A DNA stretch of 64,000 nt. Origin: Eukaryota sp. GEM-RC1. Its lineage: Eukaryota. The notes under the pieces are model-generated. The model was not told the DNA's origin, did no database searches, and saw only the letters and a program-made list of their open reading frames with translations. How positions within the stretch are numbered: position 1 is the first letter of the stretch; each line of letters starts with the position of its first letter. The position numbers were made by a program, and so were the translations under genes. The stretch is from contig JAUFOQ010000004.1 of NCBI GenBank assembly GCA_040285855.1, positions 1,302,001-1,366,000 of the forward strand. Direction: 5' to 3'. This document shows positions 5,551-63,500 of this stretch, in pieces.

Positions 5551-5802
5551 ATTAAATATTAAACATATTAAATATTTCAAACATTTTGATAGCATCATAT
5601 AATATCTTGTTTATCTACAAACGTTCTATTAAAAACAAAGACATATCCGCTACATAGCTTTTTTTACTAACGTGCATTGTTACAGAAGATGTATTATACA
5701 TGAATTGTTATGTTTATTACTTTCTTGTAATCAAGTAAGAAAACGTCGGCTCATATAGGTTCAAACAATCAAAAAATGGAAAACCACAACAGTAAATCAA
5801 AC

Positions 5803-16087: not shown

Positions 16088-16626
16088 CTGTGAGATTGAT
16101 GTTGTGTATAGTGCTTGGTGCTATTGAGTTGATGGATTGTTTTAACGCAAGGAAACTTGGTCTTCATCAAAATTCTCTTTCACTTCACAACCTGACTTTA
16201 TGCCGTAGTTTGAGTTTTTTCAATTTATCCCGCAATTATATTGGCCGAATCTTTGAAGATACGGATCCATTTCTTGTTTCTCAGTTTGACTCTTATAGGT
16301 TGACTTTACACGTTATAAAACATAGACAATATCCAATATTTATACTTACTTCCTTCGTTCAGATCCTGGATGATTGTTTCACGAGATGTTTGATAGATAC
16401 GAGATGTGTTTGGCAAGATGTTCTTTATTTATACTATACTACTTAGTTCGTCCAGATCCTAGCTGAATGTTTCACAAGATGCTTGATAGATACATGATGT
16501 TTGACAGAGACAAGATGTGTAACACAAAATGTGTTGGTCAAGACATGTAATACAAGATGTGTAATACAAGATCTATAGCAATATTTTAAATATTGCTGGG
16601 TTGTAGGGTTGTTAAAAGGTCACATG

Positions 16627-33597: not shown

Positions 33598-34104
33598 TTT
33601 ACTGTTGTGGTTTTCCATTTTTTGATTGTTTAAACCTATATGAGCCGACGTTTTCTTACTTGATTACAAGAAAGTAATAAACATCACAATTCATCTATAA
33701 TACATCTTCTGTAACAATGCACGTTAGTAAAAAAAGCTATGTAGCGGATATGTCTTTGTTTTCAATAGAACGTTTGTAGATAAACAAGATACTATATGAT
33801 GCTATCAAAATATTTGAAATAATTAATATGTTCAATATTAATCAATCTTTATCACAAATCAATTTGGTTATATCATATGGACCAGTCCTGAGTACGGCAT
33901 TACCACACCAGACGAAGGCCATTGGAGGATGTACTGGGTATTCACATCCTAATTTAGATAAGAATAAAATACTTATTTAAGTGCAGAAAGATATTCAGTT
34001 ATCTTCTTTTTGTATGTTTTTGTTGCTTGCTTGTTCTTACGTGTAAACCAATTTTTGTTGACTGATTACAACCTGTTGTGATTTTTGATATAATTACCCA
34101 CTTC

Positions 34105-35115: not shown

Positions 35116-38100
35116 ATGGTCGTGGTCTTTCTTCTCCTTTGCTGTTATACTTATGCCTCAAATTGTCGATGGAATGTCACGACTGATGGATTTTTGGTTT
35201 GACAGTAACAACTGGGATCGAGGTATCGTTCCCTCTCAACATTCTTTCGCTATTCTCCCACCTCAAACCGTTCTTTTAACAGCATTTGTTGAATTCAAAG
35301 TTGATATAACGTCTCTCGCTCTGTCCTCCAATGTTGAGCTTTTTTTCACCGATAACTCTACCCTAACCGTGTCTGATAGCCTTGTCATGAATGGGGGTAG
35401 CTTAAGCACCGATACATCGTCTCCTCTCTCTTTTTCTTCTGTTAAATCTCTCATTGTGGATTCTGTTGATCCTATTACTTTCTCTTCTCACAAACTCATA
35501 GTTACAGATCTCTTTGAGTGGAAACGTGGTTCAATTGATCTAGATGGGTTCAGTGAACTTGTTCTTGTCAATGTTACTTCCCGTAATGATGGTGAATCCT
35601 CAACCAGTTCTGATGTTCTTCATGTTTGGGGAAGGAATGAGTATGGTCAGTTTGGAGGAGAACTGTCTGGAAGTCAAGTTTTCCCTGGAGTCATTCAATT
35701 TTCATTTTCCTATTAAACAAGCTTCAGTTGGAAGATGGCATTCTCTAGTTCTGTTAACAAATGGTGACGTTTACACTGCTGGACGTAACTATTATGGACA
35801 ACTAGGATGTGACGGTGGTGATCGTAATTTTCATGAGAGAATTCAAATTTCTAATATTATTCAAATTGTCGTTTCTTTTCGCTCAAGTTATGCCTTGAAT
35901 AGTTCTGGTTCTGTTTACTCTTGGGGTAATAACCAGTATGGTCAGTTAGGATTAGGACATTTATCTAACAAAGACACCCCTTCTTTAATTCAAAATTTAG
36001 AAAATGTTAAACAAATTGTTGGTAGACAAGTCGCAACATTTGCTTTAACTAGAGATGGTAAAGTTTTTGGATGGGGAAGTGGTTCTGGTAATATTTTTGT
36101 AAGGAAATTACTGCCAATGAACATTCACCAGTGCCAGTCGAACCATTGGAAAATATTAAATTTATTGCTGCTGGCTGGGCTGCCTTTTTCATTAAAGAAA
36201 ATGGTTCTACTCTTACCTGTGGTAGAAAATTGGGTGGTTCTGGAACTTATTTGACACTGACTGAATTTGCCAATCATATTGAGTTTACTTTTATTGACAT
36301 TTCCTCTGTTCACGCGCTTGGAATTGATATTAACCAGAAGCTGTGGAGTTGGGGTGAAGGTGGCGATGGTAGACTAGGTAATGGGGATACATCCCAATCT
36401 TCAACTCCAGTTGAAGTAAAAAACATTGGGAAAGTGTTTACCGCAGCTGCATGATTGAGTCATTCCACTGCTGTTGACGTTAATAATGACGTGTGGTCTT
36501 GGGGTAATCATTTCGACGGTGCTCTAGGTAGAACTACTACCTCTCCTAATGAAAGATTCATTCCAGGTCGTATTACTCATTTGGAGAACAAAGAAATTAG
36601 TGGTATCAATGCATATTATAGGTCTAATTTTGCTTATAGTTCACAGTCTAGTGAGAAGGAAAATTTTCACTTATCAATTCAGAAGTACAGTTATATTCCT
36701 CGAAGTTCGACGTTAGAACAATTTCTCTAACATACTCGACTCTTTATTTAAATGACGTCTATTTTAACAATTTAAAATTCTTCGAATTATTGGCTAATTC
36801 ATCAGTAAATGTAACTAGTGACTCCAAAATTGCTTCTGATGATCTAACTATCACCTTAAATTCAAGTGATCTCTACTATGATGATTCAGTCGACATATCG
36901 TCATCAAGTGTCAGTTTGATTGCTATCAACAGTCGTTTCCAGAATGATTTTGACTTTGATAATATCCGTGTTTTAGATTTATCCTTTTCAACTTTTGAGT
37001 CAGCTTCAAGTATTCATATCATTGTTGGGTACTTCTCTTGTTTTCATTGTCAACTACTTGGAAACTCTTCGTTGTTGACAGAAACATATTCTGAGATTAA
37101 TTCAGGGAATTTCTCATCTTCATTAGTTGTTACACAATCAGCAGATACTAATACGCTCATTGGTCAAGTTCAATTGGCGAATTCTATTGATTTCTTCAGT
37201 TACGTGATTCTTGATGACGTGTCAGTTTCAGAATTCCAGTCTTCGATTGGGTCCATCATTTGTCATTCTGATGTTTTGATGAGAAATGTTGTAGCTATTT
37301 CCAGTATTCCGTTCGTTTTCCACAATGCATTGATTTTATCTGATGCAACTGTCTTTCTTGATCCGCTCTTTGTTCTCTTAGATTTTCAAACTTTGAAAGG
37401 CGTTGGTACTATTGATACTAATATTTTAAATTTTGGAAGAATTAATCCTTCTTCTACATTAACTTTTAATGACAATCTTACTCTTTCCTTTTCGTCCATA
37501 GTAACTCTTCAGATCAGTAACGACAGTTCTTCTACTCAATTAATTGTTGGTTCAACTGCTTATTTAGATGGAATACTAGAAATTGAATTTGACACAAAGT
37601 CTGACTCAACCAGGTATAATTATACTCTGATAGAGTCTGATCAAATTAATGGAAGATTTAGAAGCATAATTAATCCTTGTGCTTCACTTATAACCACCTT
37701 TTATTCAAAGTCTTCTCTAATTGTCTCTGTAAATGATTTTGTAGTCGACTTACAACAAGGTTCTTACGTTTCACCTACTGGAGTTGATGATCCTTGTTGT
37801 GGAACTTTTGACAGTCCTTGTGCTTCTTTTAGAGGAGTTTTAGAAAGAATGGGAAGAAAAGGGACGGTGTATTTCCATAGTGGTCACTATTTGTTTAATC
37901 TAGGTTTCGGCAAATTAATTGATGTTGATTGGGAAGTTATTGGTCTCGTTGACGTCATCATTGATGGAAGTGATGAGACTATACTTGACATTATTTATTC
38001 TTCTTTGACCTTTCATAATTTAATTATCTACGGCAAAAATGTAGTTTTTGAGGTTTCTGATTCATCAATCATTTTTGATTTCGTGAGTGTTCTTTCCGTC

Positions 38101-41100
38101 TCTAATGATACCATGTTTTTAATTGAAAATTCCTCTTTAACTACAACAAACTGTCTGTTTGACATCGATTCTTTTCGTCTATTTGAATGTATTGAATCTT
38201 TACTTTTCATCAACAATTCTAGTTTTTCCGGATCATTGTCTGACTCGTTAATCTCGTTGTCATCATCGTCAATGATTTTTGACAATACACTTTTTAATGA
38301 CTTGAATGTTAATAATTTGGTTGTTTCTTCCTCTTCGTCTATTAAACTCAATCATTTATGAATAACGGAAGTAACTGCTAACACTGTATTTCAATTACAT
38401 CAGTCTAATAGTGTCATGAATAATTTAATTGTTTTTTCAATCTTTTCAAAAGACTTTGTTTATAGTACGTTCTCAATTATTTCTCTAAATACTCTCAAAG
38501 TCGATCAATCAATTTCTACTGTGTGGTTCAGTTTAATCAATTGTAAATTCCACTTACAAAATTTGAATTTCTCAAGTATTCACGGTGATGCTTTTAGTGT
38601 CTTAAATTCGACGGACTCCTCTTTATCTATGGTTTTGGTTGTGAATTCGAACTTGTCCATCTTTCTCAACGTTTTAAATTCAGGATTGTCCATCAACTCT
38701 CTTTCTCTTTTCAACTGTATAGGAAGTATACTAGAATCTTGTGTTAATAGTTCAATTACCACACAGAATTTGGCCATTACTGATTCATTATTTGATACTT
38801 TGTTTTTGTTATCAGACTCGTCCTTGAGTTTATCCTTGGGTAACATTGGGTCATCGTCGTTTAATAATAGTAGACTTGTGCTTTATAACTCTACCCTGGA
38901 CATGGAAGAAGTTACCATTGATTTGGTTTCAACTTCTATTTTCTTAGAGTCTATAGAAAGTAATAGTACTTTTAAGAATATTGTATTACGTCGTTATGAG
39001 TTTCTCCAGTTTTTGGTTCTAACTCTGTCCAAAACTAATTTTTTTTGTCTATTCATGGATCGTTGCCAACTGTCTGAATTAGATTTTTCAGTATATGATA
39101 TTTTTTTAATTGACTCGTATCTAACTCTGGAAAAATCTAATATTTCTGGATGTGTTTCTAACCAAGACTTTAAGTTGAGTTTATATTCAGAAAAATCTTA
39201 CCTGTATTTTCATAAGTTTGATCAGGAATTCTACTTTTCTTCATTGGTTTTAGTTCATTCCAATGTCTCAATAATGTCATATTCCCCAGTAATTTCTAAG
39301 TCTGTTTTAATTGATGAAGAATCTATTATAATTGGTAATGTTCCATTACTAGATCTTTCCAGATTAATTTCGAATATTTCGATTTTTCCTTCACAACACT
39401 GCTGCAACACGTCTATTTGTCAAGTTTCTCTGAATTTTGATAATATCGAGTATCTTTCAGAGTTACTAGAACTCTCAATCCCCAATAATGATAAATTCTC
39501 TCACAACTTCCTATTGAATTCTCTTGACTTCTTATTAAATGATATTATTTCTTTCAAGAATATTTCAGTTTTTTTCAAATTCACTATTTCCAGAATATTT
39601 TACATTCGACGTGCGTTCATCCGTATTTGTCCTATTGAGTTTGTTAGTCTAGAACCTCCAACTAGAGGTGGATTTATACCACTGTTTGCTTTTAATCTTG
39701 GGTTAGATCCTATTGTTATTCATCATTCAACTGCTTCGATCAATCAAAGTCTCGAATATTCTTCAAATAATCATGAATATTTCCACTTCTTCTTTTTGAA
39801 AGTCATGGTTGTCATGAAATGATTGTTTCTAGATCCACTGATGAAGCAATGATATATTTTAAATATTGTTTCAAGCGTCCTCATATTCAAACTATTTCCC
39901 CAAATCCTTTCCCTTTAACAGGACCATTGACTATTACAGGATCAGATTTCTCTACAAATTTTGATTTTCTTGCTATTCTTTCAAGCTTCCCACAAGGGGG
40001 AAGTTCGTAATTATACACACGAAGAAATCGTTTTACACATCCCCTTTATTTGCGATATCACTTCCACTAAATTTGAAATTGTTTTAATAGTTGGAAATCA
40101 GTTCAGTAACTCTTATCAAATCCATTTTGGTCCGCCAAGAGTTACTTATCAACCTGTTCCTCTTTCTCCTTCTGGTGAAACTATTCTTCTTTATGATCCA
40201 AATTTTTCAAAAATGTTGAACTGTTACCATAACTCATCTATCCAATTTTCAGTTAGTAGTGCTACTTTTGAAATAGTACTTGATGATGAAGTCAATGTTA
40301 GAACTGGTTCTTTATATGGATCAACTGCGTTTGTAATCGATATCCAGTTTTTCAAGGATTTCAATTTTTAATTTCTATACCGGTGACGTCATTTGTCGCT
40401 AGAAATACCCCATTTGTTTGCTTTGTGGGTATTGCTTGTGAAATTGAAGTTTATACTTATCTGGAAGAATTCTCGTTTCTCGAAACTTACATTGAACCTA
40501 ATGTACCTGATAGTATTTACTTTCTTTATTTTGGTTCAACTGTTTCTTCTGCTATTGTTACATTTATCTCTTATGTTCCTGGAGTTCCTCAAGATTTGAA
40601 AATTTGTGCACATTTTGGATGTTTTTCTATTTTTAACTTACCCTTTGTCATTCAGCCGGCTTATTTATCTCCAAAGCATTTCCAATGGTTAAATGAGCCT
40701 ATATCTACTGAAGTTCTGGTTGAAGTTGAGGGTATTTCCTTTTACAGTTTCTCTGTAATTCAAAACAGTTTTTATTTTGACAATTGTCCATCTTTGTTAT
40801 CTTATTTAAGTGAATCTTACATGATCTTTGATGTGGTGATTTCTCAAATAGGAACTTGTTCATTAGTTGGATCTTCTTTTTTAAATATTGTCCCATTCAA
40901 CATGATTATTGAAACCAAGAATTTTCTTATTTTTCCACCAGAGGTTAGATTTAATTCTCAAATTCAATTTGTGCTTAGTGAAGATATTTCTCATCTCTTC
41001 ATAACACATGGAAGTTAAACGATTTCTGTTCACAATGGTGCCAATATTTTAAATTTGAAGGATTCTCCCACCTTCATTACTCTTCACAGATATTCTCAGT

Positions 41101-44100
41101 CAATGAACGTCAGTTTTGTTACTTCTTTTATTGACACCGTAATTCCTGATGTGATTGAGGTAAATCACCTTCAATCTATTTTGATTGATCTGAACAACAA
41201 ATTGTATTATTTAGATGTCAGTTGTTCTGGTAACTGTGATTTGGCTTTAGACCATCTTCCGAACTCCACTATTAAGGTTTCTTTTACTGGTATTGAACCT
41301 GGATCAATTGTACTGGAGTTTTACGTTAATTATTCCAATTCAAATTTCCACTTTCGGATCCCAATATCAGTTGAAAGACCTCCTGTATTTGAACTTGTAA
41401 GTCCAAATGTTTTGTCTACCTCTGTAAATTCTCTAGTTTTCATTCACAGTTACTCATATTTTGATTTGGAATCCTATTTTTCTTTTGATGATTCTAATAT
41501 TGAACCTACTAATGTTGAGCTCCTCTCCAGTTCTGATTTCTTCTTTGTTTATAGATTTGAACTGAATCTTACTTCCATGCCAGTTTTTGAGGGGGAATCT
41601 GTCCAAGATCTTTGTTGGTCTCAGAGAGGATTCAGAAGATCATTGGTCACTCAAATTAAAATATATAATTTTGAATTCAGTAGTAACGATCACGTTAGTG
41701 TTTTTGAACATCGTGATATTTCTGTTGACTTCCGAGGAAATCTTACCTCAAACGTGACGTGTTCTATTGATGGTCAAATCTTCTTTGGAAAAGTTGTTGA
41801 TATTTTACTGGTTTACAAGAGTGTAAGAATTCCAACTTTCCAGCAACACGTGTGTGTTGACGTTTACTATGATCACTTTCTTTTGAATTCTTTTGAAATT
41901 CATGGTGAATCCTTTTTGGAGGAGGTTTGCTTCGAGTCATTTTCACGTCATCCTTTGGTGAATTCTTCTGAAATTATTTTAAATCGAGAATCAAATTTAA
42001 TATTCGACGGCTCAAGATGCTGTAGTGTTGATGTTTTCTATTGTTCAGAATTAATCTCCAAAAATGAATTAGTTACATTCGATTTTCCTTCACTATTTGA
42101 CATTCATCACGTTATTATCACGTCAAATTCTAGTTGTGAAGAGATTGATTCTGGACTTCCTTTTGAACTGATCGTTAACAATCACGCTATTTCACCATCC
42201 ATTATTTGTAAGCAAATTCCTAGTGGATATTCCTTCGCATCAATGTGTGAAATAGATGTAATTTTTCCAAAAATTTCTGAGATTACTCTAGTAGCTCTAG
42301 AAGACGTTTACTTACTTGAAGTAGAGTTTTATGGATACAAATCTAATTCCTGTTTTAAACCTTTTCATGGGGAAAAGGCGTAACTTCATTAGGAGGAATA
42401 ATTGATGAAGATGTTCATTTGAGATTTAATAATCAATCTTTTGATTCAATTTCGGAATTCAAACAATTCGTGGTTGATAAGTCAACTTTCTGGTCATCGT
42501 CATTTCTAACTTTTGCCACTGAGTTGTATTCTCCTTATTGTTATTATTCTACTGTTAGTTATCCAACAGTTTTGACTGCTTCATCAGCATCATCTGTTGT
42601 CTTTCTAGCTGAAGAAGTAGAACTAAATCCTCAATTTTTAAACATTTCTATCCCAATTATTTGTGTTGATCCTTTGAATTTCATTGTGCACTGTAGTGAT
42701 ATGTTTACAGTAACGACTTCAACATTTGAATACTTGAGTTTCTATTTTTGAATAATTCATTGATTTTTTCTTTCCTGAATTTGATCAAACTAGGAGAACA
42801 TTCTCTATCAATTACTTATGGTCAAAGTCAATTTTACTGGAATGGGATTATTGTTCAAAAATTTTATGAAATATTTGAAATTAGTGATTCCGGAACACAC
42901 TGGTGTGATCACCAATTTACTTTGGATAAAACATGTACTTTATTACACTTTTCGTCCACATTAATAACTCAAAATTTATATTCTAATTTTTCAAAAATAC
43001 TTTTGATTTCAGATTTAAGAATAGATCTTGAGTTTGATACTTCAATCCTACATGTTGTTAATGGATCCACTTTGGAAATTATTGGACCTCCACGTCAATC
43101 AATGACGATTACACTTTCCTATTCATCCCAATCTACTGCTGTCGAGCTAGTTTCAAATGATTGTCACTTACCTAAATTGAATTCTGGACATGGATGTTTA
43201 TGTCCAAAAGGAATGGAATTTAATTTTCTTGGTGAATGTGCGAAGTGCTCGCTAAATTATTATTCAAATTCAGAATTTAATTCAGAATGCAGACCTTGTT
43301 CTTTTCCTAGAATCACTCTTCAAAAAGGTTCTAGTGATCTTGACCATTGTGTTTGTCCTTTAAACACTCTAGATTCCCTAGATGCATGTTTACCTTGTCC
43401 TCATTTAGCTGAATGTGGATATGGAAATTTGACTGGAATTGAACCTGGTTTTAGATTAAATACTGATACTTGGGAACTAGATGAGTGTGTGTTTTGGTAT
43501 AGTTGTCACGAGAATGTCTGCAGATCACGTCATGCTTATGGAGATTTGTGCCATTATTGTACTAAAGATGCCATTGTTGGTAATAGAATCTACTGTATTG
43601 GAAGAGAATATTTATTGTTCAAGATTCTTTTATTGGTACTCTTTGTCCTAATTCTGTTTGTTACAGATAGAGTTTACATTGCCTTTCTTCAATCAAAAGT
43701 ATTGTCACGTGCTTTGCGATTGTCCATCTCTTCTTTATCGTTTTTCCGATCCTCTCAAATTTTGAAGCATCATTTAAATTACTCAAATATTTTGAATATC
43801 TTTCTGTTCTCATTTTCAGTTTTCAGTTACAGAAGAGTGTCTTTCAGTTTAATATTTTTTGAGTATGTTTCATCTCTGTTTTATTTAGATAAGTCAATGA
43901 GAATGTTACCTTTAATTGTTTGCTCTCTGTCACTTGCTTCAAGATTTTGGTTAACACATTATTTTAACTTCAAAACTTTTAATATTTTCCATAGTTCCTT
44001 CTTTACTGGAGCTGCCTTTATTTCTCTGAATTTTATTTTTGGAGTTACTTTGTCTCATTTTTTCAGTGGTCCAGAGCCATTTCTATTATTTATTTTTGCT

Positions 44101-44337
44101 TTTATTCACATTCTATTTGTTGTTTTTGTTATTTATGCTCAGCGAACACTTCCTTACTGTTTTACCATTATTGCTTATTGTGTTATAATCTTTTCAGAAG
44201 TATTACCCAGTTTAATCTGCTTTATTATTCAAACAGTTTTATTGATTTGTCTTTATTGTGTATCAACTTCCCTTGAACGAATTTCTCTTGGAATTAGTTC
44301 TTTAGTTTGTGTTTATAATTTGATGGTGTACGTTTGA
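35116..44337 (+). pseudogene. Copy D of the modular surface protein (~9.2 kb, no LamG insert), with in-frame stops
   Basis: ATG 35116 (MVVVFLLLCCYTYAS). RCC1 region resembles copy B. In-frame stops TGA 36452-36454 (Gly in paralogues), TGA 38359-38361 (TCA in copy A) and TAA 41016-41018 (CAA in B/C). Intact Cys-rich plus TM ORF 42748..44337. Confidence 0.8.
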
Positions 44338-46083: not shown

Positions 46084-47149
46084 AAGTGAAGACAGAGATT
46101 GTAAACAACTGATGAATAAGGAACAACCTAATGTCGCTGAACAACGGCATTACGGTTCAAATGTGTGTGTATTGTGTACACCTCTAAGTGTTTGACCTCA
46201 ATCATATTTATTTAAATAATGCTATATTAGGCAATAAACATTGCACTTCCGAAACAGTCGAAAATGAATATTTTTTGCAATATTTATTTAAATATTGCAA
46301 TATAAATATTTATTAGTGCTCCCTGTTCTGACGTTCACTGAAGGTTTTTGGTTCAACTCCTTGGTTATAGTGACGTGACACTTTTAGTACAATTTCTAAA
46401 CTTTCTTTCTTTGTCACACTTTTCTGCGCCTTTTCGCATGACTTTGAAACTGAAAGACTGGAACACTTATTGAGTGCAGAAAAAACTGAGTCTTTGGAAG
46501 CTTTCAGAAGAGTTTCGTCAGTTCCTCCTGTTTCCCTCCACCGTCTGCTTTTTCCATGACATCTTCTTTAAAAGCATCACTAGGTGAACTCTTTTCCTCT
46601 TCTTCTGACTTTATTGATCTTAGTTTCATGCCCTCGACTCCAAAAATCATGTGAAAGACTTTTTTCTACTGACAAACGAGCCCTTGGCTTTCATAGGTTT
46701 GGATTGAATCCTACAAGCTTGGAAAAGTAACTTTTCATGAAGTCTAATCGAACTTGGTGGACTGAAGCTATTTTTAGGGATAATTTCATTGAAGATGGTG
46801 CTGGTCTCGAATAGGTTGTGATGGATTTGTTGTTTTTGTTTTTAGTATGGTGTGATTCCATAAAAATGTATATAACGATAAGTACAAAAGTATAGGTAAC
46901 GCATTTAGTCATCAAACTCAGAAAGAGTTGTGTCACAGAAATATTGTATATTGCAATAATTGCAAAATTTATTTAGTGGACAACTGTACTGTAATATGTA
47001 TTGTCTAGACTGAACCTATTTAAATATATATTGTTGGCCATGATATTTATTTAGATATTTTTTCCCAATCCCTGGGTCCAACGGCTTTAAAATACAAAAT
47101 TATTTATAGATGAAAGAGACATACATATCAAAATATAAGCTAATGAAAC

Positions 47150-48574: not shown

Positions 48575-49034
48575 CAGGGCCTAGAAAAATTGAATTGCCA
48601 ATACAATTATTTCAATACATTGGTATGAAACATTGATTGGCGCCAATTTAGAACATTGAAACATTGACTGGCTCAACATAAATCATCGAAACATTGATTG
48701 ATATAATATTCAAAAATTGCAACATTGGCCAATTATATTTTGCGAATTATCCTATTTCACTCAACACTGGAAATCACAATACCAATATGCAGCTGATGTA
48801 GATAGTCGTTTTAACATGTTCTTTATGAACAAAAACATAACTTGTATGATTTGGCTGTTCTACTACTAGTAGTAGTGGTACTTGAAACATGGGACCAATA
48901 TCAAACATTCAAGCATCGTTTCGACCAATATCTAACATTCAAACACTGATTGGTTTCATTTGAAACATTGAAATATTGATTGGTTCAATTTGAGACACTG
49001 ACATTGGCAATCAATTCAATTTTTCCAGGCCCTG
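48575..49034. mobile_element. 460-bp MITE with hAT-like CAGGG termini
   Basis: 23-bp TIR CAGGGCCT(A/G)GAAAAATTGAATTG with 1 mismatch; many internal GAAACATTGA/CAATA repeats. No 8-bp TSD recognisable. Confidence 0.8.
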
Positions 49035-49126
49035 AAAAGGACCTTTTTAGATTCCAGGTACTGAATGATCCCCAAGACAAGACTTTTTCTTCAAAATTTC
49101 TTCACTATCTCCTTTATCTCTTTTTA

Positions 49127-49414
49127 ATGCAATCAACCGGTCTACCTGGAGGATCCATTTCCCGTAATCACGATGAACCCGATGTTAAAGAAGCTGTTGA
49201 GTTCGCCATGGAACATCTAAATCTCATGTCAAATAGTCTGAATCCTCACATTTTGGATTCAGTTGTTGACGCTTCTTCCCAAGTCGTTGCTGGTACTAAC
49301 TACCACCTTACATTAAAAACTACAAGAGGAACCGCATCTGAATGTCACAAGTTTCAGGTTTTCAAGTCTCTTACTGGCGCAATGGAGCTTACCAACCATC
49401 AGGTTGTTTTCTAG
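49127..49414 (+). CDS. Cystatin (papain-family cysteine protease inhibitor), 95 aa
   Basis: N-terminal PGG, helix DVKEAVEFAMEHLN and the canonical QVVAGTNY loop. ATG at 49127. Confidence 0.9.
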   Translation: MQSTGLPGGSISRNHDEPDVKEAVEFAMEHLNLMSNSLNPHILDSVVDASSQVVAGTNYHLTLKTTRGTASECHKFQVFKSLTGAMELTNHQVVF

Positions 49415-49448
49415 TGATGTTATTTTGTGTTGTATATACCACATGTAT

Positions 49449-49855
49449 TTATTCTACTCTTGTTTTACATAGAGGACATTCCGGGTGCTTCTTCAACCAC
49501 TTACTTATACATCGTCTGTGGAAATAGTGATCACACATACTCAATCGCAAGACAGTATGCCCTTTTTCATCATATCTAGACAAATTGTACATTGTTGATC
49601 CAAACATTTAGAGAGTTTGGTAGACGACATGCTCTTGATCTGAGCAGTAGTTAGTCCTAGTCTCAAACTAGTAGAGGGTTCTGCAATTTCTGGTAAATCC
49701 AATTCACGATCAGAAAGATATATGAACACATCTTCCTCATCATCAACAGTTACTGGTTCAGGGTAACTTGTATCTACTTCACTGTCAACGTATACTCCAG
49801 CATCAAAGTTTGAGTCATCATTGAGATACCAATCGTTCATTAGAAATCCTTGCAC
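49449..49855 (-). CDS. RING-H2 E3 ubiquitin ligase-like protein (one frameshift; start uncertain)
   Basis: GLTTAQIKSM...CTICLD, then after a shift near 49560 HTVLRLSMCDHYFHRRCISKWLKKHPECPLCKTRVE* (TAA 49449-49451): a C3H2C3 pattern. Confidence 0.88.
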
Positions 49856-49979
49856 CTTTTTGTTTATATCCAGAAGATCTCTCCTTATATATCCTGTACA
49901 AGTAGATATTGTCTGTTTTTAAGGCTTTGAACTAAATCGGCAACACTAATTGTTGGTATTTATTGAATCAAAATCTTCC

Positions 49980-50303
49980 CTAGTCTTTCCATTCTTTACA
50001 TTGGCTACTTGAACCTACTTCCTTGCAGCAGATCTCCTTTTCACATTCTAAATGTGAGCTTTTCTCATATTCTTTAGGACGTGCAATCTTTTCCTTTTGA
50101 ACTGGTTCGCATACTACTTCCTCCTGTTGAACTTTTGTACGATGAACTGGTTCGCATACTGTTCTGCACACTATCTCTGGTTCACAAGGAACACATACGG
50201 GTCGTTCTCTTGGTTTGCAGTCGGGATCAGCTGTTTGTGATAGATGAGCGTCTTCTCTTCTCTCACTGCGAGTTCTGTCAACAATATCTCGGCGTTCAGA
50301 CAT
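49980..50303 (-). CDS. Small Cys/Glu/Pro/Val-rich protein with VCEPV-type repeats
   Basis: 107-aa ATG-initiated ORF with VCVPCEPE, VCEPVH, VCEPVQ; AATAAA ~15 nt after the stop. Confidence 0.6.
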   Translation of the reverse strand: MSERRDIVDRTRSERREDAHLSQTADPDCKPRERPVCVPCEPEIVCRTVCEPVHRTKVQQEEVVCEPVQKEKIARPKEYEKSSHLECEKEICCKEVGSSSQCKEWKD

Positions 50304-50344
50304 TTTGGTGTAGTTTAGATTGTTTTTTCGTCAATAATATCTAG

Positions 50345-50470
50345 CAGGTATCTCTTTGTCTTCAAAAACATATCTTTTTCCAATAACTTCTGGAATGAAT
50401 GTGAATCCGAAGATTCAATAATGCTACAGAGTCACTGTAGTAAATAAAGGCTATGACTATGACTATGACA
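50345..50470 (-). ncRNA. Candidate Fanzor omegaRNA scaffold / element right end
   Basis: Directly 3' of the Fanzor stop, three consecutive hairpins on the minus strand: CTACAG-tgact-CTGTAG (50440-50424), TGAATC-TTCG-GATTCA (50417-50402, cUUCGg tetraloop) and TTCCA-N8-TGGAA (50395-50378). Position matches Fanzor/TnpB guide RNAs; boundaries are estimates. Confidence 0.55.
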
Positions 50471-52600
50471 AATAACTGGGTCTAACTCCTAGACCCCGCT
50501 CCAAATGATGCTCCACAATGGTCTTGATGTTGATACATGCTAACTTGTTACGATTCCAAATCTTGGCGCTACCATGACATTCTTCTCTACATTCTTGGGA
50601 CTTGCATCTCAACAAAGCGTGACACTTTACCAGAGGTTTCTTCTCTCTTTTCCATGGTTTTGGATTACTGATTTCTTTGAACACTTTGACTGGCTTCCAA
50701 CAAGTAGGACACTTTGAAGACGTGTAACTCTCATCTACGAGAACAAGGTTGTAACCATTTCTCTTAAAGAAGTTTCTCCAACCCACACCTCTACTTGATC
50801 GGAGATGTTTTAGGTTCTGCCTTTTATTACCATTGTCACCAAACATCAATACACTGTCATTTTTATTCCATCCTTTTGCAGTCATATTTTTCGACAACTT
50901 ACTTTCTGTTTTTTGAATATGGACGTATCTTTGCATTTTTGAATGCGCCATATCATCAAACAGTAGTAATCAAATGTTGATTCAATAACTGTAAGTTTGG
51001 AACCCATATAGTCATAGAATGTGTCATAAAGAGTGGACTTCGAATTTTCTTTCGACAATGTTGACTCTTCTTGTTCAACTGTTTTTCCATCTTGGAGAAT
51101 GAATTCTTTTTTCTTTCCCCTTCTAAACTTTTGATGGACCCTTGACCATCTGGACCATTCTGTCTCTGTCAATCTTAGCCACTCGTATTCTTTGTCTCTT
51201 CTTTCTCGTGCTTTTTGTTCAGGAAATGGCCTATTTACTTTCTCTGAACAAAAATAGAGTAAATCTGTTTTTCCAGGATCAATAAAAACCTTTGTTTTCA
51301 ATGAAAACTCTTCAACATCATAGTCTTGAACATATTCTTCTTTACTGGAGAACTTTGCACTGTCTGGTTTAAAGGACATTCCCACACAGTCCTCTCTGGT
51401 AAGTTCAACACAAGCAGAGAAACCATCAGTTTTAATGGTATTGTTAAACTTATAACCTTTCTTTATAAATGGACGATTAAAGTTGAAAAATGGGACCACA
51501 ATTGATTTTGTTCAGCAGGAGACATGTGTGCAATTTCATTCTTTGTATTCCAATCAGACATTTTCTTCTTGACATTCACTTGTTGTGTTGACAAAGTGGA
51601 ACGTAATATTCGCCAAAGACCTTGTGTGTCTATTTCAAAAAGCCTGGTGTGACGTGACGAACAATCGGAATTACATTGTAAGCACTTGCACCTTCACTTT
51701 CAAGATAGTTATTTATTTGAATCGCAGATTTAATAAAGGATTGAGGATGTTCACGAACTGATTTAAGTAGAGATTTAACGACTTTCTTTTTATAAACACC
51801 ATTAGCATTTTGAATATCAATTGATGGTGGGAAGAGAACATCAATAAAATATTTATCTCTAAACAATCCTTCAACATAGTCGTTAGTTGCCCACAGAAGT
51901 TTAATTTTACCTGCAATGTTCAAACTTCTATTACTGTCGTCTTGAAGAATTTCTGTATTTCATCTTTGAATAAATTGTTTTATTTCTACAGTTGTTTTTG
52001 GAACGTCATTTCTGTTACCTTCGAGAAAGACATTTGTAACTTGTCTAAGTCTCCAACGAAAAACAGACTGTTCTTTTTTTGACATTTTCTCTTCTTGATC
52101 AGTCTTTTGAAAATAAACATTAATAAATTTGTCAATGTATTGAGCATAACGCATTTTAATATTGGTGTCCAAATTTGTTTTGATAGTTTCACCAACCATT
52201 GCCATAATTCGTGAGGAACGAGCAGCTGGAAAGAGTGTAAATCCTCCATTGTTGAGCATTACTTGTTTGTATTCCTCTAAAACAAAGTTTTTCAACTGTT
52301 CATTAAATGTAGGAGGTCGTCCTTGAGGTAATTCAATCTCATGATGTTCAGCAGAGATGTATCTTAACAGAGTTTGAATATGTTCTACTTCTTTTCTTGT
52401 AATTAAAGGTAATTTTTCACCATTCTTATCCATGTGTAATAAAAACAGCTTCAAACAATAGGAAGTGTGCATTCCAAGTTTGTGAACTAATGGAGCATAA
52501 TAATCGAGTAATAACGTTAATCCAAAATGTTTGACAATAGACTTTGGTGTAGTTTTATGTGTTACAAAAGTTGGACGAACGATTTTATTTGATTGAAACA
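50463..52600 (-). pseudogene. Fanzor1: Fanzor1 (eukaryotic TnpB-family RNA-guided RuvC nuclease) domain
   Basis: N-terminal THKTTPKSI..HTSYCLKLFLLH..LPLI..IKTNLDTNIKMRY; YKFNNTIKTDGFS; RuvC-I FIDPG; FGD then rearranged RuvC-II VDESYTSSKCPTC; zinc finger CPTC...C.SQEC; RuvC-III WNRNKLACINI; terminal RPSYL. Three homopolymer frameshifts and one in-frame TGA (51960-51962). Confidence 0.93.
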
Positions 52601-53330
52601 ATAAAAACAACTTCAATGCTATTACACTATCTTTGAAGCAATAGTTTACAACTTCTTGAGGTCTTTCATCAACACAATCAATAGGCAATAAGTGGTGAAA
52701 TTCGTCATGAAGACGTCCTTTAGATTCGTTTAATAAAAACCAACTTAATGACCTTAAAGACTTTGAACATTTTGAAACAATAAATTGCTTAGCATAAACG
52801 TATGAATCACAGACAATTCTACCAGCCCATTAAGAACAAACATTTTGCCATAGAGATGATAAATGAGATTTAGTTGTTTCATCTAGCATTGGTTCTGGAA
52901 AGTCGACTCCAAGTGTAACAATCCTTTTGCCTAAAACAACATTAACGAAGTCAGTTATGTTAAATCCAGTTAAAACTGATGGATTTTTATCATTCAAATA
53001 GTTGACAAAAACTCTAGTAACTGTTTTTCGTCTTCAAAAAATCGAAGGTTTCTACAATCAGGTGGCAGTTCAACATCAGATTCATGAGTCAACTCTAAAG
53101 TTGCAACAAAATTGTCTTGAAGGAAAAATTGATCTTTTATAAAATGACCAAACACTCCAGAAATCATAAATACTTGTTGGTTTTGAATCCACAGTTCTCT
53201 TTCTGCATCACTTTTCATTTTGAGAGATCCATTCTCGTTCTTTCTTTGATCATCCAACTCCTCTGTAAGTGTTTCTGCAGGGATTTGATCAATTTCTCTA
53301 GTTTCAATATCAAAAGACAATATTGAACAA
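52600..53330 (-). pseudogene. Family-B DNA polymerase 3'-5' (DEDDy) exonuclease domain, in frame with Fanzor
   Basis: ExoI ILSFDIET; FEDEKQLLEF; ExoII-like NPSVLTGFNITDF; GRIVCDSY; SLRSLSWFLLNESK; ExoIII NYCFKDSVIALKLF, which sits in the same uninterrupted ORF (51960..52688) as the Fanzor N-terminus. No polymerase palm motifs follow. Confidence 0.85.
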
Positions 53331-53984
53331 TGATTAGAGTTATTTGGTAATTGGGAATGTTTGAGAAACTCAATCATTGGTTTTTTAGGAGGTTTCAAAC
53401 TCTTTGTCGCATTTGATACTCCACTTGCTTTTGGTTTGGTGGTTTTGCTTTTGGCAACTGTTGTCTTTCTATTACCTGTTGCTGCTGTTGTTTCAGTGGT
53501 GTCAGATGACTCAATTGTTTCTGTTGTTTCTGTTGTATCTGTTGTATCAGGTTTCTCACAAGCAGCAACATTTATTTTTGGAGTTGGTAAATGTATTTCT
53601 GGAAGATCTGTTAACTCTGGACGACTAAAGTTTTGATAACTTTCTTGAAATAATTCTTCAGCTTCTTCCAGCGCTTGTTCAATCATTTTTAACTTCAAAA
53701 GACGTTTCTTTTCCGGTTAGATAAATTTCCAGGTAAACTTTTGAGAAAGTTTTGATAAGTGAGCTTTGACACCGTTTCCTTGTAACTACTATCATCTACC
53801 ATTGTTTCAGGAGTTAAACTTTCATATTCTGCTGTTAGAGTTGTACACTGCACAGGTTGCTTAACAGGTGATTCAATCTCATCAGAATAAAACTCATTTA
53901 ACATACCTTGGGCATGAGTACATACATATTGTCGGTATTCATCAGGGTGATCTTCATCAGGGTGAGTAGTAACGATTTGAGACG

Positions 53985-54620
53985 GTATTTGTTTTCTCAT
54001 TTCTAATGCATTATAAACAACACAATTAGAGACTTTAGACAGAATTTCGAAAAGATTTGTTGATGTTGATTCACACTCGACAATTTAATTCATATACAGT
54101 AGAATAAATAGACCACAGTCATTGAGAGTTTGGACTTGTTGAACTGGTACTCTAGCTATGTAGCTGAAATTTGCCATATCAAACAGGAATTGCTGTAATT
54201 GTGAAATGACGGTGTCAATACGTGATAAAGTGTTAGAAAACTGAGAATTTTGATCTTCTGTGCACATTGAGTCAATAGAGAAGTATTGTTTGTTTTCAAT
54301 ATCACAGATTAACAGTGACCAGTGAGTGGCTGTTGTACCAAAGAGACCGTCATGTATTGGAAGTCACAAGAAACGTTTCTTACACTTTTTAGTGTGTCCT
54401 TTACTGTACTTTTCCATTGATAATTGAACCTCTCTAAATTGTTCAAACATTCTGTTTTATTGTGAAAGATTGATTGCATCTTGAATGTTGGCTACTTCAA
54501 AGAACTCGCATCGATTACTGTTTTCAACAATGTACTGACCAAAAAAGTCAATGACAGAATCATGAAGTAGTACATTTGGTTTCAGTGAGTCAATTTGATC
54601 AGATCTAAGAATATGAGGTC
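53985..54620 (-). pseudogene. Ulp1/SENP (peptidase C48, clan CE) cysteine protease domain at the N-terminal part of the Fanzor polyprotein
   Basis: One frame reads LRSDQIDSLKPNVLLHDSVIDFFGQYI...LPIHDGLFGTTATHWSLLICDIENKQYFSIDSM...PVQQVQTLNDCGLFILLY...LEMRKQI, giving His-Asp-Cys triad motifs. In-frame stops at 54457, 54364 and 54085. Confidence 0.85.
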
Positions 54621-55504
54621 TAGGACGAGATTGTGTTAGAATTCCACGATATTGATGTTGAATAAATTGATATTTTTGAGAAAATTTCTTTTTTTTGGAG
54701 GATATTTTCTAGATTGACGAGTTTTTCTTGTCCGATTTGAGTCCATAAGTTGATTGCGAGTAGTCAATGGCACCTGTCGAGTTTCATCAGGAGATGAAAT
54801 TACTGTTGAATGTTCGTATATTTCAGAAGTACCAGCAGATCTATTTATTTGTTGTTGAGAAGGGGTTAAATGAACTACAGTACTGTGTTCTTGAACACGT
54901 GCTTGAATGTTGTTTGAAAAGTACTCATGTACAATACTTAAAGCAAGTATAGCAAAAGGCGTAGGATGAGTAGTTCCTATTAGATTTAGCACTTGTTTTC
55001 TCATGTCAAAAGCATCATAATCGACATAATTTTGGACTTGAGACATAATTTCCTGGAAATTGTCTGATGTTGATGCCAAATGAACAAATCGTTATCTTAA
55101 CTTATTCCAATTCGTTCAACCATAAATACTCAATGAACTTTTTTCTTCAATAATCAATCTAGATTTGAGACAACACATTTTAATTCACATTACACATTAT
55201 ATTATTGAGAGTTTGCCAACTTCCATCAATTTCATTTCATTTAGAAACGAAACGTAAGTTTAGAATGGCTGAATGGAAAAACCGTATAGTGTTTTCCATA
55301 TATCGGAATATGCCTTTCTATTTCTCCGATTAATTGAGAAATTGTACAAGTTTGGTGTGACGGTTGATGTTGAAAAACGTAATCCTTTACCGGGTGGTGA
55401 TGAAGTCGTTTGGATTTAATCTTAGTACTGTTTGTTTGTTTTTGCAATTTCATAGTTTTGTAGGAAGGTTACCTTATTGGGTACCGAATAAAGTATATTG
55501 TATT

Positions 55505-55856
55505 TCATTTACATTTACAAAACACAAATCTCAGATCCTCATCTAAAAAACGGGGTTTATGATCAGTCAGTGAAATAAATGCATTTGCAGAAGTTGATAA
55601 CTGACAGACACTAACTAAAGTATCTAAACTATGATCCTTCTGTCCATCACCGAACAACTTACCTAAAATTGAATTAAAATATCTGTGCATTGAACGACAC
55701 AACGCAAACGTTAACCTACGCAACCAAAAATTTTCATTGAAAACTTTACCGCACTCAGAACACTATTTACCAAAGGAAGTTAATAAACCTCGTGCAGCTG
55801 GTCCAATATTACATCGCAAACGGTTGAAGCACAAAAGAATTGTACCTATCAACATT
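55505..55856 (-). mobile_element. Short remnant of an RLE retroelement C-terminus
   Basis: IGPAARGLLTSFGK*CSECGKVFNENFWLRRLTFALCRSM resembles the G.LG..A...L....FW..R.S.AL tail of RLE domains. Confidence 0.4.
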
Positions 55857-55899
55857 CAATTGGTTAATTAAGTGACAGTACTTTGTATTTTTTCCTTTT

Positions 55900-56880
55900 T
55901 CAGCCACTTCAAGAGCAGAAAAATCATCATCAAATTTTTTTGGAAATTGATCCTCATCTTGGTGGTATTGGTTGTACTTCATCTAAATGGTATGGTGGTA
56001 AGAATTTTGTCTTTGAGTTCTATAGACGATACCCGAGTGAAAACACTCTTCTTGTTTCTACAAGTAGCTTTTTCTTGGAAAATTTGAGATTGTAAAATTC
56101 GACTTGGCCTGGCCAAAGAAAACAATCTAGCGTTCTCAATTTGTTTAATCGATTTGAAGGAGAAGTTCCTCAGTTGATTTGATTAACCAAATTCCACAGA
56201 TTTATGGTTTGTTGTTGAATGATCATCGATGGAATACAATATTTAGATTTCGATGTTTCTTGTTACCTAAGGATCTTGAATGTCAATGTGGTAAATTAGT
56301 TATTTTTCCTCACATTTTGAGTTGTAACCGTTTCATTGCATATCGAACTTGCATTCATGATGTTGTCAGAGATCAAATTCATAAGTGCTACAAATTCGAA
56401 TCTTTTGTTGAGCCACTGTTGAGATAACCTGAGATCAATAATTTAAAAAATAGTGATTCTGATAGGACTTTTGGTAAAAAAGAGCTGATGTCAACGTTCC
56501 ATCACTCAATGATGAAATGACGGTTGCTGATGTGATTACTGTGGATGTTTGCAAACAAAAGTGTATCTAAAAATGTAAACAATGAAGTGTCTTCCCTTAA
56601 TTTTTCAGAACAATTTAAGAGAAACAAATACGAAGCTCCTTTGACTGCTCTCAAACATACTAGACGTGTTTAATACAAATTCTGTCATTTTGCAATTTCA
56701 ATTTATGGTCGACTTGGTATAGATGTTCTTTGTCTTCTCTATGATTTTGAGACAGTTGTCAAAAAAAGGATGAACAAGAAATTTGAGTTTGACTTTTGGT
56801 GGAATTGTACTGTATTTACAATAATTAAAACAATTCCTATTATGATTTTGAAAGTTCTATTAGATGTCAGTATTTTCAAT
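55900..56880 (+). mobile_element. Degenerate 3' part of an RLE-type (CRE/R2-like) non-LTR retrotransposon
   Basis: CQCG..PHILSC..RTCIHDVVRDQI (CCHC knuckle plus RHD-like motif), ESFVEPLL, RADV..VADVITVDVC, EQFKRNKYE, FAISIYGRLG, FDFWWN. Many stops and frameshifts; no RT core visible. Confidence 0.7.
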
Positions 56881-57176
56881 GAAAAAAAAGCTGATGTGAA
56901 GCGACGATTATGGTTTAAATTATATGGTTTTAAATAAATTACAATTTTATGTAAATAAGTCTTATGTGTGTTTGTGCTGGATTTAAAGTTATTTGTATGG
57001 GGACTTTAACGTTACGTAAACTCATAAATGAAATAATAATTTCAAGAATAAGTAAGATCAAACGAGAGAAAAACCATGACTAAATGCAGTCAAAATCTAC
57101 CAATATAAATTAAAAACAAATCGTAATATACAAGCAAAAAACTATAAAAAACACTGACAACAACACTCAGAAACGT

Positions 57177-60574: not shown

Positions 60575-63500
60575 ATGTTTCTCCATAGTACTATTAAATC
60601 ACCATCTTCTATATATTCTGTTGTAAATGGGTTTTTTTCAAGTGGTCAATCCCAGGACATTGTCGTTTCCAAAGGATCTACTTTGGATCTATACACTCTA
60701 TCTGACAACAAACTAACTCAGTCTTCTACTTTCAATACCTACTCTCTCGTTAGAGCAATGTGTTCTGTCAAACGATACTCTCAAGAGCTTCACTACATTG
60801 CAGTCACTTCAGACAGTGGTTTCCTCACACTTCTATCCATGGCCAATGGAGTTTTCCAACCAGTCGCCACTTCCTCCCTGGGTAGACCTGGTTTTAGAAG
60901 AAGCATCCCTGGAGAATTCCTCTGTTCTGACACTGAAGGAAGAGTCATCTTCTGCTCCTCAATCGATGGTACCAAGTCAGCACATCTTCTCACTCTCAAA
61001 GACGACCTCTCCTTTGCTACCTCTGTCTGGCTTCCCCAATCCACTACTTACTCCGTAGTCCTAGGAGCCGTCTGCCTTGACACTGGACCTCACAACCCCA
61101 TCTTCGTTACTCTGGAAGCAAGTCTAGAGAACGAAACCCCAGTCAAAACCCTTCACTACTACTCCTTCTTAATGGGGAACAACGCCTTCTCTCACTTGGA
61201 AGTCTCTTAAAGTCGACCCTTCCTCTTACTTTGTCATCTCTCTTCCTTTGATCTATGGTGAGGATCAGAATACTACTCATGGAGGTGTGGTGGTTTGTAC
61301 TACTAACAGAGACGTGTATGTGATTGATGATAGTTATAATGTTATTAGTGAACATTTGCCAACACGATCATCGTGGCCTTCTAATCAATCAAATCTGATT
61401 GTCTGTCACTCGCTACGACCCCTCAAAAATAGAGTTTTTGCTTTAATTCAAGATGAAGCCGGTGATATCTTTTCCCTTGACATTACTAGAAACTCTCTTA
61501 GTCTTGGTTACTTTGACTCTTGTTTCCCTTGTTCTTGTATGTCTCTGTTAATGGGAGGAGTTCTCTTTGGAGCAAGTATCACCGGTGACCATCATTTATT
61601 CAAGATCACGCGACCACCTTCCTCTGAGAATCCTTTAATCACTGAGCCGTTCTTTACCCCTCAATCAATGAGAATGGAGCTCATCGACAAGATCTCTTCT
61701 TCTTTCCCAGTCACTACTCTATGCCCACTCCAAGACTCCCGTTTTGCCTTTGTTTCATCCACTTCCCCTTTCCCTTCCATCTCCTTCCTCTCTCCAGGAT
61801 ACGGAACTCATCAATACGCATCATCTCCGCTTCCTCCCACTGCAACTCCCAATGGGATATGGGCTTTAAAGAGATCATCTTCTGATCGAGCTGATTCGTT
61901 GATTGTGATTTCCTTTAGTCATCCGGCTTCTACTTTGCCGTTAGCGGTAGGGAAGAAGGTCGTACCTATTAAGGATAGTGGGATGATTACCAATCAATCA
62001 ACTAAATTGATTGCTTTGTTGGGATCGGGGTTGATTCTGCAGGTGACTACTGAGAGAGTGATTGTTATGTCACTTGCCTCTTCTGATAGTCCATCACGTT
62101 TACTTTCCAGTTGGATTCCGACTGCCAAACGTGAGATTCGACAGGTGAGCTCAAGCGGTAACTACATTGTTCTCGCACTTTCCGGTGGTGAGCTCTTCTT
62201 TTGACCTTTGATGACGTCAGCAAGACTCTCGCAGAAAAAGGTTCTTCCTTTTTCGCCGTAGAAGTCTCTGCTATCTCAATGCCCTCAGATCCATTTCCCA
62301 AGTATTGCATCGTTGCTGACCTTGAACAACGTTTGTCCATCCTTTCTTTATCTCCCAGGGATCCTCTGTCTGTAACGTCTGTCATGGATCTATCATATCC
62401 GATTGCTGATATGACTGTCATACCAGGAAGTTTGATTGTTGCGGTTTCTGGAGGATTAGTGTTAGTTTTGAATGACGTGGATACAGTGAGTGGAAGATTT
62501 CTTCAGAAGTCTTCACCTCTGCCACGTAAGCTTGCTGGTGACGTGGCACCTAGAATAAGTCGTCTGAATTCTGATCAAGTTGCTGTTTTCTCACAGGATG
62601 GCTTTAGTTGGATGACTAAAAGTGATTCAAGTTGTGTATTCACTAGAGTTTTACTCCCGTCGTTACTTCTTTTGGCTCCCTTTTCTTTCCAACATGCATC
62701 AGGTAACGTCATTGAGTGCGTGATTGGTATCACGTCACCCAATCAAAACCAATCACCCCAATTGATCATCAATGAGATCAAAACTACTCAATCAGGTCAA
62801 GAATCAGTTTTAACAGCTGACTCATGGCAAACCATTGCAATCAATTCCAAGTACTCTCCACGTAAGCTAGTTCAACATTCCCTTGGTTGGCTTTTTGTCA
62901 GTTGAGTGTGATAAGGATGTTCTGTCTCTACAGGACAGAGAGTCTGTGGATGGGCCAAATAGTAGTATATTTTTTAAATTTGAACCTCGTGATGATTTGA
63001 TGGAGGAAGTGATTGAGCCGATGGAAGCTCCACCTGGGCAGGTTTCTGATGACCTTCCTAAAAGAGTGTCATCAGTTGACGCCTATAATTCACCGATGAG
63101 CTCGTCTCTATCACCTTGGAAATCAGGTCCAAACTATTGGGCAAGTTGCCTGTCAGTCTACCACCCCGGTCTCTTCTCCTCCCCTTCAAATCTCTCTTCA
63201 GCCAAGCCTTCTTGTGTTGATCGTTGGGAAATGCCCCAAGGTCAAGGTCTCTTTGCCATCACTGAAGTCACATTTAGTAATTCCAACAAGAGCTTTGTTG
63301 CCATTGGAGGAGCCATTAAGCTTCGTTCAAGACCAAAAAGAACTTGTGAAGGCGGTTTTGTTCACTTGTTTGAAATTCAGGATGATGGTAAGTTGGCTTT
63401 TGTTCATACAACTGAATTACCTGATAGTTGTCATTGTTTATGTGGGTTTAAAGGAATGTTGTTAGCTGGATCTGGTAATAGAGTTAGGTTGTTGGCATTA

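Follow-up and report, generated by a model that had tools for sequence, protein, structure and literature searches.

Three hairpins that follow the stop codon of a broken Fanzor gene probably form the variable interior of a longer omegaRNA of about 175 nt. This RNA would belong to a decayed copy of a multicopy Fanzor1 element in which nuclease and exonuclease are fused. We set the probability of this reading at about 0.6. Fanzor proteins are eukaryotic relatives of CRISPR-Cas12. The exonuclease-fused system is likely a previously unreported form of Fanzor1, with an omegaRNA that is likely of a known type. Positions refer to the window, that is, the whole stretch of 64,000 nucleotides analysed, and the features are collected in Table 1. 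Published work is cited from parts of each paper.

A first-pass annotation had pointed to three back-to-back stems, one of them with a UUCG loop, behind a (TCATAG)x3 repeat that spans the stop codon. All three stems were found on the minus strand, within 63 nt in total. The second one carries C-UUCG-G on its stem, the hexamer repeat occupies 50468-50451, and its first TAG (50465-50463) is the stop codon. The small Cys-rich ORF downstream has its ATG at 50303, as had been claimed. On their own, the three hairpins are barely above chance. The 126 nt first put forward folded like shuffled sequences (z -0.62; 56 of 200 shuffles). The 64-nt hairpin core gave z -2.37 (12 of 500 shuffles), with z -2.88 on the plus strand, and its folding was among the best 2% of 7992 windows. 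Clusters of three perfect stems of at least 5 bp in 65 nt occur 14 times, in 11 places, in the 64-kb window, versus 5.05 expected per 64 kb from Markov shuffles. As for the UUCG loop, one of the nine CTTCGG sites in the window sits on a 6-bp stem, and 20 shuffles produced none. An Rfam search returned three matches (best E 0.84), all far under the gathering scores.

In known systems, Fanzor1 omegaRNAs lie between the end of the ORF and the right end of the element, the guide follows stem 2, and the GtFz1 omegaRNA overlaps 17 codons of the ORF (PMC10432273, in part). The three solved Fanzor1 RNAs, 75-150 nt long, have an SL1 of seven pairs with a variable region behind it (PMC11423790). The scaffold is described as ending in a double-stranded stem, of which the TSD may be part (PMC10711439, PMC13565253). 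Folding of the wider region around the hairpins revealed two further elements: a stem of 7 bp within the final codons, and a long stem enclosing four hairpins, the three above and an imperfect one. The segment 50500-50326, whose limits were chosen post hoc, had an MFE of -45.8; MFE and centroid structures coincided, and none of 200 shuffles did as well (z -3.05). A second run gave z -2.68 (2 of 300 shuffles), with z -3.21 on the plus strand, and folds as good as this one were found in 55 of 4256 same-size windows and in 7% of the 427 blocks of the window. This fold follows the published Fanzor1 omegaRNA plan, and the segment is a predicted scaffold. The omegaRNA claim of the first-pass annotation is partly supported: it agrees with the Fanzor1 gene and the position behind the stop codon, but not as regards the three hairpins taken alone. 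That annotation mentioned neither the decay of this copy nor the exonuclease fusion. Because the longer fold gives the Fanzor1 plan and the three hairpins alone do not, both boundaries probably move. At 175 nt plus guide, the candidate is longer than the three solved Fanzor1 RNAs.

The stem in the last codons, candidate SL1, showed a pair probability of about 1.0, which fell to 0.18 in a 500-nt context. It involves the codons CGG and CCC, which were used in 0 of 49 and 0 of 39 cases elsewhere in the element. Among 5000 synonymous shuffles, a 7-bp stem arose in 1.2-1.7% and an energy as low in 4-5%, and none of the 65 other 45-nt coding bins contained such a stem. The closing stem, in which 50472-50450 would pair with 50345-50327, had a pair probability of 0.6-0.95, and a double-stranded end of the scaffold just ahead of the guide was predicted with probability 0.9; by itself the closing stem is not significant, an equal partner being present in 30% of 397 random 150-nt zones. 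Candidate guides had no match at one mismatch or fewer elsewhere in the window, although 64 kb says little in this respect.

Table 1. Positions of the features discussed, in coordinates of the window.
Feature	Position	Strand	Remarks
Candidate omegaRNA scaffold, ~175 nt	50326-50500	minus	predicted; limits picked after the fold was seen
Candidate SL1, 7-bp stem-loop	50478-50496	minus	within the last 11 codons
(TCATAG)x3 with stop codon, predicted 5′ strand of closing stem	50450-50472	minus	
Hairpin 1	50424-50440	minus	6 bp, 5-nt loop; pair probability 0.95
Hairpin 2	50402-50417	minus	6 bp, cUUCGg loop; pair probability 0.59
Hairpin 3	50378-50395	minus	5 bp, 8-nt loop; pair probability 0.93-0.95
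Fourth, imperfect inner hairpin	50346-50375	minus	pair probability ~0.57
Predicted 3′ strand of closing stem	50323-50345	minus	holds one copy of the 22-nt direct repeat
Predicted guide, first 15-20 nt	50304-50326	minus	from the fold and PMC10432273 (in part); reaches the host start codon
Small Cys-rich ORF	49980-50303	minus	likely a host gene outside the element; cluster of one
Fanzor1 part	50463-52590	minus	RuvC triad D (IDPG), E (VDE), N (WNRN); broken here
PolB-type 3′-5′ exonuclease domain	52600-53320	minus	tblastn of P0003; fused directly to Fanzor
Low-complexity linker	53320-54084	minus	last part 33-38% identical to P0016/P0019
Ulp1 (C48) protease-like domain	54085-54570	minus	PF02902 E 3e-08, 4e-08; in-frame stops
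5′-most remnant ORF	54636-55091	minus	repeats the segment behind the Ulp1 domain
Upstream copy of the 22-nt direct repeat	55139-55162	minus	possible left boundary or TSD
Block copies	1-4215, 5555-15030 (minus), 26077-33839, 35116-44337		

The gene upstream of the hairpins had been called a Fanzor, and this identification was borne out, for a copy that is broken here. Minus-strand frames between 53686 and 50463 are pieces of one gene, of which P0003 (940 aa) is an intact sister. P0003 matched SpuFz1 with E 5e-24 and PpFz1 with E 2e-20, from about residue 239 onward. Its structural model, computed with a 99-row alignment, had a pLDDT of 87 and a pTM of 0.77. When this model was used in a structure search, the three solved Fanzor1s filled ranks 1 to 7 with PolB enzymes next, and the target TM against SpuFz1 was 0.81-0.82, in agreement with the Fanzor1 fold and its enlarged REC. 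The Fanzor1 signature comprises DPG at RuvC-I and, at RuvC-II, a Glu just ahead of a zinc finger (PMC10711439, PMC13565253, both in part). The window shows IDPG and VDESYTSSKCPTC, which align with the outgroup D and E in 69 of 69 rows, and the TDG motif of the WED domain is present as KTDG. At the third RuvC position the window has N, as do 38 of 39 C-termini of the clade, whereas D occupies it in 67 of 69 outgroup rows. A RuvC site killed by this D to N change was considered and rejected, GtFz1 being active with N (PMC11423790, in part).

In-frame stops were found at 52832-52830 and 51962-51960, where the sisters read E and C, and three more lie in the Ulp1 region. These sister readings at two of the stops led us to reject a non-standard genetic code. 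Five frame switches interrupt the ORF of the element, each at a run of A or T. The shift at ~50935 is common to six sisters, named from one genome; it is read through by 16 proteins, and those identified all come from the other two genomes of the clade. A programmed frameshift at this position is unlikely, and a homopolymer error of the long-read assembly would be the simpler reading. We infer that the five frame switches are probably assembly errors, that the in-frame stops probably reflect decay, and that this copy is probably a dead gene. Three sisters, P0003, P0040 and P0202, are intact. Compared with its closest sisters, the present copy is 92-94% identical in the N-terminal half, rising to 96-99% close to the 3′ end, with 95-99% for the 3′ part as a whole. 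The latter value bears on the idea that the hairpins are chance structure in a decayed AT-rich spacer, in a copy that has lost its omegaRNA. Decay is indeed visible in the five stops and in the lost exonuclease Asp described below, and the z of -0.62 for the region as first delimited would fit; but the high identity of the 3′ part, the codon test on SL1 and the uniqueness of the UUCG hairpin in the window make this explanation very improbable.

The C-termini of sister proteins give indirect hints that the scaffold may be conserved. P0209 ends in YLSLSLS, the reading expected if its three hexamers had TTG in place of TAG. In P0039, which comes from another species, the C-terminus is YLSQVIVFY, near IVIAF in the post-stop frame of the window; this corresponds to 5 mismatches in 18 positions, with p 0.006 per position and about 0.08 over 14 offsets. 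The VIVF match alone, picked post hoc, has p ~0.005. RGLGVRP is kept in 5 of 7 sisters, P0209 and P0212 altering one residue in the 3′ arm of SL1. When sister DNA was sought, 0 of 373 pattern matches were confirmed in metagenome contigs and 0 of 24 in viral contigs, where a second scan also gave 0. Two loci from a motif scan were discarded as sister copies, being chance matches antisense to a bacterial ATP synthase gene.

The candidate RNA and the protein were then set against known systems. With GtFz1 of Guillardia theta, the clade shares the D-E-N RuvC triad, active in GtFz1, and the candidate RNA resembles the 150-nt GtFz1 omegaRNA in its overlap with the last codons, in an SL1 of 7 bp and in having several stem-loops ahead of the guide (PMC11423790, PMC10432273, both in part). 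The structural match of GtFz1 to the P0003 model had E 2.7e-18 at 14% identity. GtFz1 is without an exonuclease domain, and the candidate RNA is longer, with four inner hairpins. The fungal SpuFz1 and PpFz1 are the closest solved relatives by sequence and fold. They have a C-terminal G..RP.YL end similar to that of the clade, and their RNAs share with the candidate the plan of SL1, linker, stem 2 and guide. In contrast, they have WNRD at RuvC-III, RNAs of 75-90 nt, and no exonuclease or Ulp1 module. The SpuFz1 element measures 2.1 kb and has 30-nt inverted repeats, whereas none were found in the present element.

As to the ends of the element, the Fanzor gene is multicopy and the ORF downstream forms a cluster by itself, so the end most likely lies in the 160 nt between them; for the same reason the right end is most likely above 50303. 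The Cys-rich ORF has no Pfam family and no Atlas match above 0.8. A direct repeat of 22 nt links 50323-50344 to 55139-55162, with 21 of 22 positions identical plus a 2-nt gap, and brackets every remnant of the element. The upstream copy is the best match to the downstream repeat piece in the whole window, and controls scored as well in 15 of 504 pieces, or 2 of 702 after narrowing. This repeat may be due to chance, may be a TSD as in CRe-1/2/3 and MCi-2, or may be a fixed target sequence within the scaffold.

The second possibility would go with a shorter omegaRNA, close to the model of the first-pass annotation, in which hairpin 3 or 4 is the last part of the scaffold (50378-50346), everything from 50345 onward is host DNA and guide, and the repeat is the ordinary TSD of a 5′-truncated 4.8-kb insertion. 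Enclosure of all remnants by the repeat pair and the rank of 55139-55162 agree with this; moreover, the scaffold would then span 50496-50346, or 151 nt, like that of GtFz1. Precedents exist, since CRe-1/2/3 are 5′-truncated with TSDs of 7-19 bp, and MCi-2 has variable 5′ parts, TSDs of 11-12 bp and no TIRs (PMC3627910, in part). However, the repeat is of modest significance, a guide identical to the TSD would nearly match the left junction of the element itself, and the fold without 50345-50327 is weaker and less defined. We regard the shorter form as unlikely and keep the 175-nt scaffold as the preferred reading.

A DNA transposon carrier of the hAT, MuDR, Mariner or Sola kind would have TIRs and a transposase. 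The search for TIRs gave a best inverted match score of 22 against a null mean of 23.8, though a short or decayed TIR could escape it. In six frames of 54100-57150, upstream, no transposase family and no Rep/helicase (RepHel) remnant was detected. The interval 55163-57170 comprises 2 kb without a recognisable gene or a Pfam match in six frames and may hold an older decayed insertion. Elsewhere, a gene-poor stretch at ~46590-46750 of the plus strand gave a weak match to the hAT dimerisation family (PF05699, E 0.007, below the cut-off), possibly the remains of a hAT element at 3.7 kb distance from the Fanzor.

The absence of a RepHel remnant also counts against the idea that the hairpins act in DNA, as terminal signals of a carrier of the Helitron2 type, with its 3′ hairpin and asymmetric repeats, or are plain host upstream sequence. 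The omegaRNA would then be short and confined to SL1, the repeat and their vicinity. Folding is symmetric between the strands and three-stem clusters are common in the window, as would be expected of DNA signals. A UUCG loop is, on the other hand, an RNA-type feature, and here it sits on the Fanzor strand. Helitron2 elements do carry Fanzor1 and have terminal hairpins (PMC3627910, in part); yet one role need not preclude the other, since the element end is part of known omegaRNAs. On balance, we hold a DNA-level origin of the hairpins to be improbable and retain the omegaRNA reading. CRe-1/2/3 (Chlamydomonas, Helitron2-linked) and MCi-2 (Mucor) are described with no TIRs, a conserved 3′ part, a variable or truncated 5′ part and long TSDs (PMC3627910, in part). 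The present element is like them in that its sisters swap N-terminal modules and in its possible 22-nt duplication, at one locus only. It differs from CRe-1/2/3 in showing no Helitron ends or RepHel, and from all four in its exonuclease fusion, to which the portion of PMC3627910 consulted does not refer for these elements.

The exonuclease part of P0003 matched Pfam PF03104 with E 1.3e-15 and Pol delta with E 3e-06 over residues 91-238, and its likeness to the PolB proofreading domain reached an Atlas score of 0.94. The fusion is tight: in the model, the last exonuclease helix ends at residue 242, and a strand follows from residue 251. Like the PolB proofreading exonuclease, the domain keeps the D-x-E, D and Y-x3-D residues. 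Unlike in PolB, no polymerase domain follows, and no more than about 10 residues separate the last exonuclease helix from the start of Fanzor. These motifs correspond to ExoI, ExoII and ExoIII of a DEDDy exonuclease, which has four acidic catalytic residues and a Tyr. Among the clade rows covering each motif, ExoI has D in 13 of 13 and E in 12 of 13, ExoII has D in 14 of 14, and ExoIII has Y and D in 17 of 17, the copy in the window having Val in place of the ExoII Asp. Judged by sequence, the catalytic residues are intact across the clade.

At least 10 proteins combine the exonuclease with RuvC-I and RuvC-III in one chain. The exonuclease profile matched 6 of the best 150 of 1103 relatives, and among these same best 150 it matched 0 of 116 relatives with D at RuvC-III. 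A search with residues 1-300, of limited sensitivity, returned only 4 proteins, all from one skoliomonad genome. No natural Fanzor-exonuclease fusion was found in the open literature searched, although the supplements of PMC10530073 and PMC10711439 may list these proteins. The word 'exonuclease' is absent from the main text of PMC10711439, PMC10530073, PMC10691335, PMC13565253 and PMC3627910, and nine supplement files of PMC10432273, searched by term, held no match.

What the fused domain does can be suggested by analogy. PolB-type exonuclease domains act on DNA. For this reason we tentatively favour that the domain trims 3′ DNA ends, either at the cut or later. A role unrelated to targeting is possible but less favoured. 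Guide maturation, in which the 3′ tail of the RNA would be trimmed to guide length, is the main rival function but is itself rather doubtful. SpuFz1 cuts leave 5′ overhangs (PMC10432273, in part). Since 3′ trimming of 5′ overhangs would favour deletions over strand invasion, the exonuclease step may come later; speculatively, the domain would then take off unpaired 3′ tails. Exonucleases have also been attached by engineers to Cas and Fanzor nucleases in order to change editing outcomes (PMC13370227, PMC11471210, both in part).

To delineate the clade, relatives were collected by a HMMER search of 1.84 billion representatives, which gave 1103 matches, the best 150 being examined. Relatives of the gene piece were 96% identical in Eukaryota sp. 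GEM-RC1 and 52-53% identical in TZLM3-RCL, and a search with the C-terminal piece added a relative genome, TZLM1-RC. All three belong to skoliomonads, free-living metamonads of soda lakes (PMC11316075, in part), and the window probably stems from the same lineage. The Fanzor clusters have 12+1 and 10+6 members, with 13 fragments named from one genome. In a quick tree that left out 13 short rows, 17 clade rows split from 69 other Fanzor1s on one branch with SH-aLRT 100. The 10 clusters looked up, which did not include clade members such as P0056, P0057 and P0094, all came from the three skoliomonad genomes, plus one member encoded by the window. Six representatives of the clade are 28-55% identical pairwise. 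Judged by these sequences, the exonuclease-fused Fanzor1 clade is seen only in skoliomonads among the clusters looked up. No report of Fanzor in metamonads was found in the open literature.

Upstream of the exonuclease, the modules vary among copies, Ulp1 being present in the window and in P0026. In the window, the 5′-most remnant ORF contains a repeat of 74% identity (54963-55074 versus 53959-54070). P0019 and P0026 are 96-100% identical past residue 800 and at most 43% identical before residue 700, and thus carry different Ulp1 modules on a near-identical exonuclease-Fanzor. P0002 is a mosaic, its first part being 87-92% identical to one subfamily and its last part 97-98% identical to another. 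Such mosaic sisters look like a recombination-type spread. The 2A ribosome-skipping consensus is D[VI]ExNPGP-like. Related D[VI]xxNxGP motifs, as candidate skipping sites, stand before or after Ulp1 in seven sister proteins of three subfamilies (P0019, P0026, P0103, P0194, P0195, P0202 and P0205). The copy in the window has no 2A-like motif, and a literature search on the combination of 2A with Ulp1 found nothing relevant. P0189 unites a DEAH helicase and the exonuclease-Fanzor in one model of 2027 aa; the helicase occurs in just one of the four members of its cluster, so this is possibly a merged model or an insertion in or beside a host helicase gene.

Regarding the surroundings, a giant-virus setting was considered and dropped, the flanking genes looking cellular (DDB1-like, cystatin, RCC1). 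A DDB1/RSE1-like beta-propeller gene in several pieces occupies 60575-62905 and supports a cellular eukaryotic context. At 48980-49918, a cystatin gene (plus strand, PF00031) and a RING-like gene (minus strand) converge tail to tail; the RING-like motif was recognised by eye, and its gene is split by a frame switch. The window also contains four copies of a block of 8-11 kb, 79-99% identical, in direct and inverted orientation. They encode large proteins with Ephrin-receptor-like Cys-rich repeats, adjoin RCC1 and LamG genes, have many split ORFs, and look like an expanding surface-protein family. The strongest 175-nt folds of the window (residual z -4 to -6.7) are at ~15800-16000, 16550-16780, 18500-18790 and 19440-19650; these four zones beat the hairpin region, and a short direct repeat is found at 16337-16500.

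Under the preferred reading, the 5′ end of the RNA would lie within the final codons of the Fanzor gene, with the 7-bp stem as its first structure. Pairing of the TCATAG repeat with 50345-50327 would close the fold, and the guide would be the following 15-20 nt of host DNA, from ~50326. RNA from this probably dead copy might nevertheless be taken up by protein that sister copies encode. The complex encoded by intact copies would cut empty alleles beside a TAM, and recombination by the host would then copy the element back in, a homing by gene conversion after cutting of empty alleles for which PMC13565253 (in part) provides the basis. A broader scheme seems doubtful when taken as a whole: Fanzor1 elements that encode no transposase would spread lineage-wide by RNA-guided cutting and recombination, the fusion would shape the cut ends, the polyprotein would be punctuated by 2A and protease, and the closing stem would be made of the stop-codon repeat and a duplicated 22-nt target.

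Overall, an omegaRNA behind a Fanzor1 gene was to be expected, whereas the natural fusion was not. Evolution appears to have kept this fusion catalytically intact across subfamilies that are just 28-55% identical, and both Fanzor1 and the D-E-N triad are extended to metamonads. The intact sisters P0003, P0040 and P0202, together with the predicted scaffold, offer a test of a built-in exonuclease in an RNA-guided nuclease. The same system bears on how the 3′ ends of Fanzor guides arise, and the exonuclease-Fanzor elements provide a way to test how Fanzor elements without inverted repeats move.
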